Source: Planctomycetaceae bacterium
Lineage (GTDB): Bacteria > Planctomycetota > Planctomycetia > Planctomycetales > Planctomycetaceae
DNA: 64,000 bases
Direction: 5' to 3'
Assembly: GCA_044235005.1 (NCBI GenBank)
Contig: JBIIIF010000003.1
Coordinates: forward strand, 5,792-69,791
In this document: in pieces, positions 45,543-47,489 of the stretch
Numbering within the stretch: position 1 is the first letter of the stretch
How the letters are laid out: each line of letters starts with the position of its first letter
Position numbers and translations under genes: made by a program
Notes under the pieces: model-generated
The model's input: only the letters and a program-made list of their open reading frames with translations
What the model was told of the DNA's origin: nothing
The model's database searches: none

Positions 45543-47489
45543 TCAACGGCTGTTTCCCGATGTACCAAGTGCGACCGATGTCGTTGCCGTTGAGTAGACG
45601 ATCTGCAGGAGGTTTTGAACTGGATCAATCGATAATCCGGCAAGGAAAGCAGTCCATTCGACCTGCAGTTTCTGCCCCAGAGAGTGATTGGAAGGGTCGA
45701 AGGTTGCATCGTGCTGAACATAATAGTCGCTCATAGGCCAGATCCCGACTCGATCCGGAATCATCCACTGAGCCCCGGAGCCGGTACCAGCGCCAGGCCA
45801 TTCGGGTGAGCCAAGGTCGAGCAATCCCCCGAGTGCATAATAGTTTCCCTTTTTCATCGGAAACCCGAGTGTTGAAATTCCATCTTCGCCAGCCTTCATG
45901 AATCCCGGAAGTTCACTGATCGTTGCTCGCTCGAACGGAGATGAGGAGTATCCATCATCAAAGCTCCATTCCCGTCGAAACGCTGCTTCGCCGGAGGCCT
46001 TCAGTTCTTCGATTTCCAGAGGCGAGACACCCTCATTCAGCAGCGCAGCCTCCTGCTCAGGAGTCATTGGTGTTGTTTGACTTAATTGAAAGAAGCTGTT
46101 TGTCTGCGGATCAAAACGTGCATTTTCGGGCAAATTCTGAATCTCGCCTGTCACTGGATTTGTGACGGTATTGTTCACGCCATCGAGAATTCTTCCATCC
46201 GAAAGCGTGTGTTTGGAAGAGGTCTGCAGGCCTCGAGGCCCTCCATCGCTCGATGGCGGATTCGACGACATGTTGCCGGTACTGCTGATATCCGGGGCCT
46301 TACAGATCAGTGCTCCGTCCGGAAGCAGCATTCCGGATGAAATCCCTTCGACAAGCACCGTCGACTGGCTGGTGACGATTGTTGAAGGCACCGCTGTTAA
46401 GCTGGTGAACCGAGCGACTGGTAATGATCCTGCAGAGACCTGAGCACTTCCCTGCACGATTGTTTTTCCTGACGGGCACAGGATATCGGAGGCTCTTGCA
46501 ATTGGCTTTCCACAGACCAGCACGGTCGGCAGACCTGTTATGACGAAGTCTGCCATGTTGTCCTTGTTGCCCAGATGAGCAACGGGGAGTGTCGCTTTGC
46601 CGGACTCCAGTGGAGCACCATTGAAGAAGTCATGAATCTTTTTTGTCAGACGACTCTGCAAAGTGCCGAAACTATCCCGAAGTTGTTCAATGCTCCCGAC
46701 GCCTTTCATGAGTTCATCGACCATCTCCTTTGCCAGGTATTTCGAGAACTCCATCGCCACCATCGCACCGGGAGAATCTTTGTAGTCCAATCCCAGGCTG
46801 CTAAAGAGAGCCTCCAGTCCGGCTTCCACACCTTTTTCCAGTCCTTTGCCGATGCTTTTCCAGATGACGCCATTCACCTTATCGACGATCCAGTCGACCG
46901 TTTTGCTGTCCAGGAGTTCGTTCACCGCGTCTCGTGTTGCGTCATCCAGAATGTCATCCGAGGTTGTCTTCAGCAGATCTTCAAGTAGGTCGGTTGACTG
47001 TTCCGTCAACCATTTCTGAATCTCTTTGATCCCCTGTTGAATCAGTAGATTTCGAGCTTGTTCGCGAACCGTTGACCAGTCGAGTTTGTCGGGAAATTTT
47101 GCCTTAACCTTTGACCAGAACGTCAGCCAAACAACATAGTCACCGGCGTCGCCGCTGGATCCCGGAAATTTTGGTTCTTTGCGGTTGTCCTTTTCATCGT
47201 TGTCCTCACATTCACCATTCCGGACACTCGACAGGTGGCTGGACGCATTACTTGTCTGCCACTTTGTTTCCATCGGCAAAGGATCGCTTCCCGCGGCTTC
47301 CCTGAGTCTCTGCGGGATACGAAGAGACTTAATGAGACTGGGCAATCGCTTTGCATGGCTCTCCATTTCGGATCCGTACTGATCGACGGACCTGACCACG
47401 CTTTCGATGGCTTCTGGATTGAACGACTGACGATACATCAACGGTACTCCAGCAGAAAAAGGAGGCCATTCAATACAGACCGCGATCAA
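45543..47489 (-). CDS. PAAR-like domain protein with helical N-terminal region and uncharacterised C-terminal domain (candidate T6SS cargo effector)
   Basis: 648-aa ORF. TTG 47489 overlaps the vgrG stop (TTGA). ATG 47438 with GGAG is the more likely start. There are two P-x-A-R motifs (CGKPIARASD, GSLPVARFTS) in a beta-rich segment at residues ~300-382. Confidence 0.8.
   Translation of the reverse strand: MIAVCIEWPPFSAGVPLMYRQSFNPEAIESVVRSVDQYGSEMESHAKRLPSLIKSLRIPQRLREAAGSDPLPMETKWQTSNASSHLSSVRNGECEDNDEKDNRKEPKFPGSSGDAGDYVVWLTFWSKVKAKFPDKLDWSTVREQARNLLIQQGIKEIQKWLTEQSTDLLEDLLKTTSDDILDDATRDAVNELLDSKTVDWIVDKVNGVIWKSIGKGLEKGVEAGLEALFSSLGLDYKDSPGAMVAMEFSKYLAKEMVDELMKGVGSIEQLRDSFGTLQSRLTKKIHDFFNGAPLESGKATLPVAHLGNKDNMADFVITGLPTVLVCGKPIARASDILCPSGKTIVQGSAQVSAGSLPVARFTSLTAVPSTIVTSQSTVLVEGISSGMLLPDGALICKAPDISSTGNMSSNPPSSDGGPRGLQTSSKHTLSDGRILDGVNNTVTNPVTGEIQNLPENARFDPQTNSFFQLSQTTPMTPEQEAALLNEGVSPLEIEELKASGEAAFRREWSFDDGYSSSPFERATISELPGFMKAGEDGISTLGFPMKKGNYYALGGLLDLGSPEWPGAGTGSGAQWMIPDRVGIWPMSDYYVQHDATFDPSNHSLGQKLQVEWTAFLAGLSIDPVQNLLQIVYSTATTSVALGTSGNSR

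Follow-up and report, generated by a model that had tools for sequence, protein, structure and literature searches.

We describe here a conserved protein module at the C-terminus of a PAAR protein, putatively a type VI secretion system (T6SS) effector, encoded in a 64,000-nucleotide (nt) stretch of a Planctomycetaceae bacterium genome (GenBank assembly GCA_044235005.1, contig JBIIIF010000003.1, positions 5,792 to 69,791 of the forward strand), hereafter called the window, in whose coordinates all positions are given unless a locus is named. The module observation is real and more than chance. We propose that the module is a variant of the phospholipase A2 (PLA2) type of polymorphic toxin domain, in an undescribed family tied to PAAR or PAAR-like proteins. 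The PLA2 relationship has specific but modest support from sequence comparison, and the explanation to which we give slightly better than an even chance has the module act as a PLA2-like lipid esterase on the tip of the T6SS spike.

The effector gene and its parts are the following:
45543 to 47489 (-): PAAR effector open reading frame (ORF), 648 amino acids (aa) counted from TTG
47486 to 49549 (-): vgrG, T6SS spike protein, 687 aa, directly upstream of the PAAR effector ORF
46380 to 46544 (-): PAAR motif, residues 316-370; PF05488 at E 9.5e-8, 32.6 bits versus a cut-off of 27
45978 to 46343 (-): Ser/Thr/Pro/Gly-rich linker, residues 383-504
45570 to 45977 (-): conserved C-terminal module, residues 505-640, with its core at 540-640
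45708 to 45713 (-): codons of the invariant H593-D594 dyad, from the alignment of homologues

The conserved module of a PAAR effector

A Pfam scan of the whole 648-aa protein found the PAAR motif as its sole domain, in line with a preliminary description of this region, which had called the gene product a PAAR protein. The end of vgrG at 47486 overlaps the start of the effector ORF, and the VgrG assignment is given by the Pfam families Phage_GPD (1e-89), Gp5_trimer_C and Phage_base_V and by TIGR03361 (8e-180). The same genome holds two TssC/VipB genes on another contig (C311). By sequence, the PAAR motif, the adjoining vgrG and the TssC genes together identify the window protein as a specialised PAAR effector of a T6SS. 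Its true start is probably the ATG of M18 at 47438, with a product of 631 aa, since the homologues P0002 and P0003 begin at the equivalent Met and the distance from the vgrG stop is unchanged in L003, an 83%-identical ortholog in a Planctomycetota metagenome-assembled genome (MAG; same locus L003/L007) that served as the reference for substitution rates.

Residues ~383-648 had been presented as one domain of ~265 aa that could not be assigned to a known family. The lack of an assignment stands: searches with the whole protein and with the isolated tail gave no match for residues 383-648 in Pfam, NCBIfam or PDB sequences, and a 53-sequence profile of the module gave none in Pfam or PDB sequences. 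The single domain gives way, instead, to a linker (residues 383-504), weakly conserved and alignable among the closest homologues only, followed by the module at residues ~505-640. The module is laid out as a beta-hairpin, a loop (LGSPEWPGAG...W.IPD) and three helices with H593/D594, E611 and Y632-S-x-A-T-T. Homology begins at about residue 505 in PAAR-type relatives and at about 540 in other members, and ends near residue 640.

Homologues were gathered by a word-based search and by a phmmer scan of 1.84 billion representatives, in which 62 clusters (50% identity) were matched at E<=1e-3. They come from Planctomycetota and Acidobacteriota metagenomes, the named relatives being Pirellulaceae, Planctomycetaceae and Bryobacterales MAGs. 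The family consensus reads GNWYLLGGLIDLGSPxxPGAG-x(3-7)-WW[VI]PD-x-IFG-x-DMS-x-YY-xx-HD-x(15-35)-E-xx-AF-xx-G-...-LQ-x-IYS-x-ATT. The His-Asp pair that the preliminary description had pointed out at nt 45708-45713 lies exactly there, and H593/D594 is unchanged in 65/65 homologues. The invariant residues of the module are G560, P565, A567, G568, W575, P578, H593, D594 and E611, and a further set (S561, P562, D579, M586, Q629, Y632, S633 and T636) is at least 90% conserved. Cysteines are absent altogether from 47/53 module domains. Measured against L003, the ratio of nonsynonymous to synonymous substitution rates (dN/dS) is 0.06 for the module core (540-640), 0.04 for the PAAR motif and 0.13 for the linker, whose aa identity to the ortholog is 76%. 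The module core is under strong purifying selection, and as far as these searches reach, the module defines a family that has no existing annotation or description.

An AlphaFold2 (AF2) model from a 7-sequence alignment was unusable, with a predicted local distance difference test score (pLDDT) of 54, and the final model of residues 500-648, from a 37-sequence alignment, has a pLDDT of 86.7 and a predicted template modelling score (pTM) of 0.78. Its elements are, in order, a beta-hairpin GNYYALGGLLDLG, the conserved loop, a short helix (587-596) on which H593-D594 is placed, the next helix with E611, and a long last helix bearing Q629, Y632, S633, T636 and T637; the helices are packed as a globular unit. 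The tail, earlier read as hydrophobic, forms in this model part of the long last helix, which is amphipathic, and no 19-residue window reaches the Kyte-Doolittle transmembrane threshold of 1.6 in any of the 53 members (maximum 1.52, median 1.19). A confident match to a non-toxin fold, which the preliminary description had named as a result that would speak against a toxin, did not appear, as Foldseek comparison of the model with the PDB (350,542 chains) and BFVD gave no significant match of any kind.

Wherever an N-terminal delivery domain is recognisable in the family, it is PAAR or PAAR-like: a PAAR motif in 26/65 members and a Tox-PAAR-like (DUF4150) domain in 7/65, many of the others being fragments. 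The module gene comes after vgrG at all of the ~13 loci examined, with the order VgrG-effector in the PAAR type and (Hcp)-VgrG-DUF2169-effector in the DUF4150 type. The module stands at the end of the protein in about two thirds of the members, with 8-76 residues left behind it, and in about one third it is internal, followed by 107-613 residues of varying nature, such as CHAP (L008), Lipase_3/Mbeg1-like, Gln_amidase, DUF6973 and PT-HINT tails. P0007 and P0008 coincide all the way to the end of the module, and only the parts that follow differ. Occurrences of the module are few, with 2/201 genomes of the window's own family and 0/3 same-genus genomes found to carry it and a single copy in the genome of the window. 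A search with a narrower family alignment returned only the known ortholog from genome contigs and five loci from metagenome contigs. PF26363, which is listed for two relatives, was considered as the identity of the module and rejected, because it is confined to lipase-tailed members.

Some variations of this arrangement were observed along the way. The VgrGs at L010:1-2718 and L013:1711-4326, directly upstream of PAAR-type family members, carry a C-terminal Peptidase_M91 ('Effector protein') extension and are thus evolved VgrGs. At L011:2669-6491 the layout is split into a 427-aa Tox-PAAR-like protein, a DcrB/DUF1795 (Eag-type chaperone) gene and a 722-aa module protein without PAAR. The DUF4150-type proteins (P0007/P0008, L008, L009, L012) have a long linker, at residues ~120-400, built of repeated units of ~45 residues (...TDWSDP.A.LGA.GG.AG..G...).

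Possible relationship to microbial phospholipase A2

Microbial PLA2s of the PF09056 (Phospholip_A2_3) type occur in the window's own family, where three genomes have matches. The three sequences, once aligned, match the solved microbial PLA2s 7YGK, 4AUP, 8K1W and 1FAZ at 4e-14 to 4e-10, and they are therefore genuine PLA2s. One family genome encodes a 2107-aa open frame (L021, G156:C1:6460383-6463592) with Rhs/YD repeats and the PF09056 PLA2 at its C-terminal tip, which by its domain content is an Rhs-PLA2 polymorphic toxin and a precedent for PLA2 as a toxin.

The module and these enzymes share the ungapped motif W-x-P-D-[KR]-x2-G-x-D-[MF]-x6-H-D-x2-[FY], as seen by setting 7YGK (W-A-P-D-K-P-V-G-F-D-F-D-P-A-C-H-R-H-D-F-G-Y) beside the family member P0019 (W-V-P-D-K-I-F-G-M-D-M-S-S-Y-F-V-P-H-D-W-K-F). 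When the 53-sequence module alignment was compared by hhalign with seven group XIII/XIV PLA2s, a score of 25.9 was obtained (P=5.3e-4, probability 31%). The 36 matched columns run through PGAG..W.PD....D....HD..[FY], with the HD dyad and W-x-PD aligned without gaps. None of 600 column-shuffled controls reached 25.9 (mean 9.7, standard deviation 2.0, maximum 19.1), and 16 unrelated real profile chunks (PAAR, DUF4150, linkers, partner protein) scored 6.4-12.2 against PLA2, compared with 24.0 and 26.2 for the two chunks that hold the module. The profile match can be regarded as specific, because it stands above 600/600 shuffles and 16/16 unrelated profiles, and as local.

The preliminary description had drawn the PLA2 analogy, which it called weak, from motifs. 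The analogy gains from the specific local match and finds no Pfam or significant Foldseek match beside it, and the layout proposed then needs correction in part: the segment NYYALGG belongs to the beta-hairpin and is not a calcium loop, and the candidate for the loop is PGAG-x(3-7)-W-x-PD. An HDxxY-type feature is present, with F or Y three residues past D594 in most members and the dyad on a helix of the model.

Several observations weigh against a PLA2 identity. The profile match is not extended beyond its 36 columns by global hhalign, and its probability is 31% only; we therefore only infer that E611 and Y632 are collinear with the Asp and Tyr of PLA2. Neither PF09056 nor any other PLA2 family of Pfam matches any of the 53 members, even at E<=10, and the family profile run against PDB sequences retrieves no PLA2. 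The DxC[ST] motif and the disulfide cysteines of Tox-PLA2 are missing, the equivalent stretch being PGAG[T/N/D]. Both chains of the fungal group XIII PLA2 4AUP (Tuber borchii) take ranks 1 and 2 in the Foldseek search of the PDB, below significance (E 4.2, TM 0.31/0.37), and we treat this ranking of a predicted model as a lead, not as evidence. The internal position of the module in part of the family fits an accessory role too, and no immunity candidate is conserved across all loci of the family.

Tox-PLA2 is a recognised domain of polymorphic toxins, defined by DxC[ST] together with disulfide cysteines (CxxH..., C) (PMC3482391). The module resembles this domain and its PF09056 relatives (1FAZ/1KP4 of Streptomyces violaceoruber, 4AUP of T. 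borchii) in being small and mostly helical, with a His-Asp pair on a helix followed by an aromatic residue, in the ungapped W-x-PD...HD motif and in the acidic residue on the following helix; Tox-PLA2 is, likewise, a C-terminal toxin of polymorphic toxin systems, planctomycetes included. The module differs in its extra N-terminal beta-hairpin, its invariant LGSPxxPGAG loop and its long C-terminal helix (Q..YS.ATT), and it is fused to PAAR or DUF4150, not to Rhs or filamentous repeats, and is often internal with a second toxin behind it. Since DxC[ST] and the disulfide cysteines are missing, we leave the module outside PF09056 and suggest that it is a remote, cysteine-free relative that may work alike. 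A build free of disulfides would suit synthesis in the cytoplasm followed by firing from a T6SS.

Immunity question and the downstream region

The region downstream of the effector contains these features:
45431 to 45529 (-): 3' remnant of a Tae3-family amidase gene, last 33 codons, from DNA alignment with L003
45198 to 45269 (no strand): dispersed repeat of ~70 nt, an insertion relative to L003, not at the orthologous locus
44101 to 45171 (-): alpha/beta-hydrolase ORF (GHSMGG) with a lipoprotein-type signal, the next gene downstream

No immunity candidate adjoins the window effector in 44893-45542, nor does one stand next to the effector in its closest relatives (none in L003, none in the 280-345 nt of L017 and L019), so that the earlier remark on the missing immunity gene holds for the window and for these relatives. 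The ORF list also agrees that 45145-45542 contains no complete same-strand ORF of more than ~40 codons, and the repeat noted there is confirmed, with five further diverged copies elsewhere in the genome at 77-90% identity. What had escaped attention in this gap is the Tae3 remnant.

At the ortholog locus, an intact 135-aa gene (product P0010) is found downstream of the PAAR gene. P0010 matches PDB 4hz9_A at E 1.7e-21, with the Cys23 and His81 regions aligned. The 4HZ9 entry combines Tae3, an amidase effector of the Ralstonia pickettii T6SS with the dyad C23/H81, as chain A with Tai3 as chains B and C (PMC11796386). A small ORF conserved downstream in orthologous loci had been proposed as a place to look for immunity; such an ORF does exist in the 83% ortholog, and from its match to Tae3 it is a second effector and not an immunity gene. 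Searching the window's own genome with the intact L003 gene returned residues 103-135 only, at 82% identity; compared with the R. pickettii protein, the ortholog gene keeps the Cys23/His81 regions and the window remnant has lost them, along with the papain-like core to which they belong. The interval from the PAAR stop to the remnant is 13 nt in the window and 390 nt in L003, therefore ~377 nt are missing in the window relative to L003, and the last four residues of the window PAAR protein derive from the deletion junction. A Tai3-like gene behind the Tae3 gene or its remnant was found neither in the window nor in L003. The locus thus appears, from this alignment, to show a decaying effector island, in which the Tae3 gene was cut by a ~377-nt deletion and the PAAR effector was kept.

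In more distant relatives the same check gave a different result, as six PAAR-type loci of other lineages (L006, L010, L013-L016) do carry a conserved gene of ~303-354 aa, 0-25 nt downstream of the effector, with pairwise BLASTP E-values down to 4e-49 between the homologous partners:
L006:6861-7859
L010:5358-6422
L013:6992-7969
L014:7099-8058 (paralog at 3986-5011)
L015:6729-7640
L016:6518-7573

The partner family shows a conserved F.YPASW motif and, by inspection, no signal peptide, and it has no Pfam or PDB match. The protein could be a cognate immunity protein or a chaperone. A DUF1795/PsbP-type chaperone was tried as its identity, and hhalign against the DcrB-like protein of L011 gave a 14-residue match at F.YPASW only, with a probability of 7%. 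The partner gene was not found in the window's genome, which is 100% complete by marker genes, nor at L003 or the DUF4150-type loci, nor in the 280-345 nt of L017 and L019, and thus no immunity candidate travels with the module family-wide. At L026 the gene next to the effector is on the opposite strand.

Further downstream, the signal region of the alpha/beta-hydrolase lacks a canonical start codon in both the window and L003, and is conserved at the protein level. The lipoprotein signal KRNQLLLAIFLLIGVSGC (window 44893-45175, minus strand) has no in-frame ATG, GTG or TTG; its ortholog at L003 ~7480-7600 reads KRYQLILAIFLVIGVSGC, with conservative changes, and an A-run GCAAAAAAG just upstream of the signal is identical in the window and L003. 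Because the peptide is kept in the ortholog with conservative changes, it looks translated; a non-canonical start codon may be used, or the TTG at 45175 may be the start and a frameshift follow. Kinship of this hydrolase with a solved Tle lipase was considered and not retained, since the comparison gave generic hydrolase matches only. An Amidohydro_2 gene (window 42860-43822, minus strand), syntenic with the hydrolase in the ortholog, encodes a product that opens with a twin-arginine-like signal RRTFLGTSLSVVAAAS.

Possible roles of the module

Under the explanation we favour, the PAAR effector would cap the VgrG spike encoded just upstream and be fired by the T6SS of the genome. The C-terminal ~100-135 residues would be distantly related to the secreted PLA2 fold of microbial group XIII/XIV enzymes (Tox-PLA2, PF09056); H593 may act as the catalytic base, D594 and the PGAG/W-x-PD loop may form a metal or substrate site, and E611 on the next helix may support the His. 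Carried by the spike tip to a target cell, the module would break down the phospholipids of its membrane. The data show the PAAR/VgrG/T6SS context, the conserved family with its invariant residues and purifying selection, the confident model and the specific local PLA2 match; enzymatic activity, residue roles and target membrane are inferred.

Specialised PAAR effectors combine a PAAR or DUF4150 N-terminus with a C-terminal toxin, as in the DUF4150/DUF2169 arrangement of Agrobacterium Tde2. The family described here agrees with them in its PAAR or Tox-PAAR-like domain, in the position of the gene after vgrG, in the DUF2169 adaptor of the DUF4150-type loci and in its variable toxins, and departs from them in the lack of a cognate immunity gene beside the window gene and, compared with classical single-toxin PAAR effectors, in the conserved module that many members hold between the PAAR part and the variable toxin. 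An attack on membrane phospholipids delivered by a T6SS would be shared with Tle1-Tle5. Among these, Tle1-4 are alpha/beta-hydrolase lipases with GxSxG and Tle5 is a phospholipase D (PLD) with HxKxxxxD, and their genes pair with periplasmic Tli immunity genes; unlike them, residues 383-648 have neither motif and no such Pfam or NCBIfam family, and no Tli gene is present.

The module may be, alternatively, a non-catalytic pre-toxin or adaptor that holds, presents or helps to release a second toxin, fused or carried as adjacent cargo. This would fit the stretch of 250-613 residues with variable toxin domains behind the module in about one third of the members, the divergence of P0007 and P0008 only past a shared module, the Tae3 cargo encoded directly downstream in the ortholog and the want of an immunity gene common to all loci. 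However, H, D and E are 100% conserved over 53-65 diverse members, which is the pattern of a catalytic site and not of a binding surface, and about two thirds of the members end within 8-76 residues of the module, with nothing to present; the window module is strongly constrained although its Tae3 neighbour is destroyed, and the PLA2 profile match is specific. We consider an adaptor unlikely, and the main rival of the favoured explanation. Rather unlikely, in turn, is that the module belongs to another class of small His/Asp/Glu envelope hydrolase or peptidase, whose likeness to PLA2 would have arisen by local convergence of a motif. In its favour, no structure resembles the fold significantly, the PLA2 alignment spans 36 columns only, and small helical toxin domains that target lipids are known from PAAR fusions (PMC12419801). 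Their lipocone fold is a four-helix cone with the active-site His in H2 and an Asp in H4, and in its CapCone form the His is preceded at position -6 by a Gly and the H4 Asp by S/GxxSxx (PMC12419801). A lipocone/TelC-type enzyme would act on the head groups of lipids or on cell-wall precursors linked to lipid. Against it, the 27 Foldseek PDB matches include no TelC, SAA or Wnt structure and have PLA2 in first place; the model has three helices and a hairpin instead of a four-helix cone, and the CapCone signature is not seen in the alignment. The lipocone reading was rejected on helix count and motifs, position -6 from H593 being Ser and the last helix having no conserved Asp.

A tail that inserts into membranes or forms pores, depolarising the target via hydrophobic C-terminal helices, is very improbable. 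The last two helices do have a moderate hydrophobicity and many small residues, and the Eag-type chaperone gene that precedes the family member in L011 would suit such a tail, but the hydropathy stays below 1.6 in all 53 members, on which ground a transmembrane or pore reading was rejected; it would also leave the invariant polar H, D and E unexplained and disagrees with the globular packing of the AF2 helices.

Finally, the module may be a membrane-breaching lipase that helps a toxin fused behind it or carried beside it (Tae3), and not a stand-alone killer, which we hold to be improbable. The PLA2-like enzyme borne by PAAR would locally degrade the target membrane, so that a CHAP, lipase, deamidase or Tae3 toxin gets through. 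Parvoviruses offer an analogy, as they use a PLA2 domain in VP1 for endosome escape. If true, breaching would account for the place of the module between PAAR and variable toxins, for its being all that is conserved in those proteins, for the lack of an immunity gene dedicated to it and for its continued selection in the window after the deletion of its neighbour. One polypeptide with a conserved central domain and an optional second C-terminal toxin is also the build of WHIX effectors, where the WHIX domain mediates the secretion of cargo effectors that lack PAAR and have two toxic domains (PMC12135965); here the effectors carry PAAR, and the sequence comparison is limited to the lack of Pfam matches in the module.

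In conclusion, we return to the reading of the module as a PLA2-like lipid esterase of the T6SS spike tip. To our knowledge, every T6SS phospholipase effector described to date is an alpha/beta-hydrolase (Tle1-4) or a PLD (Tle5), and the PLA2-fold toxins that we know of in polymorphic toxin systems all belong to the cysteine-bearing PF09056 type. If the proposal is true, the spike-tip effectors would gain a new catalytic class, namely a cysteine-free PLA2-like module limited to Planctomycetota and Acidobacteriota spike proteins of the PAAR/DUF4150 kind, and about 60 protein clusters that are invisible to Pfam-based pipelines would receive an annotation handle. As the module often stands ahead of a second toxin, it also raises the question whether some T6SS effectors bring their own membrane-opening enzyme.

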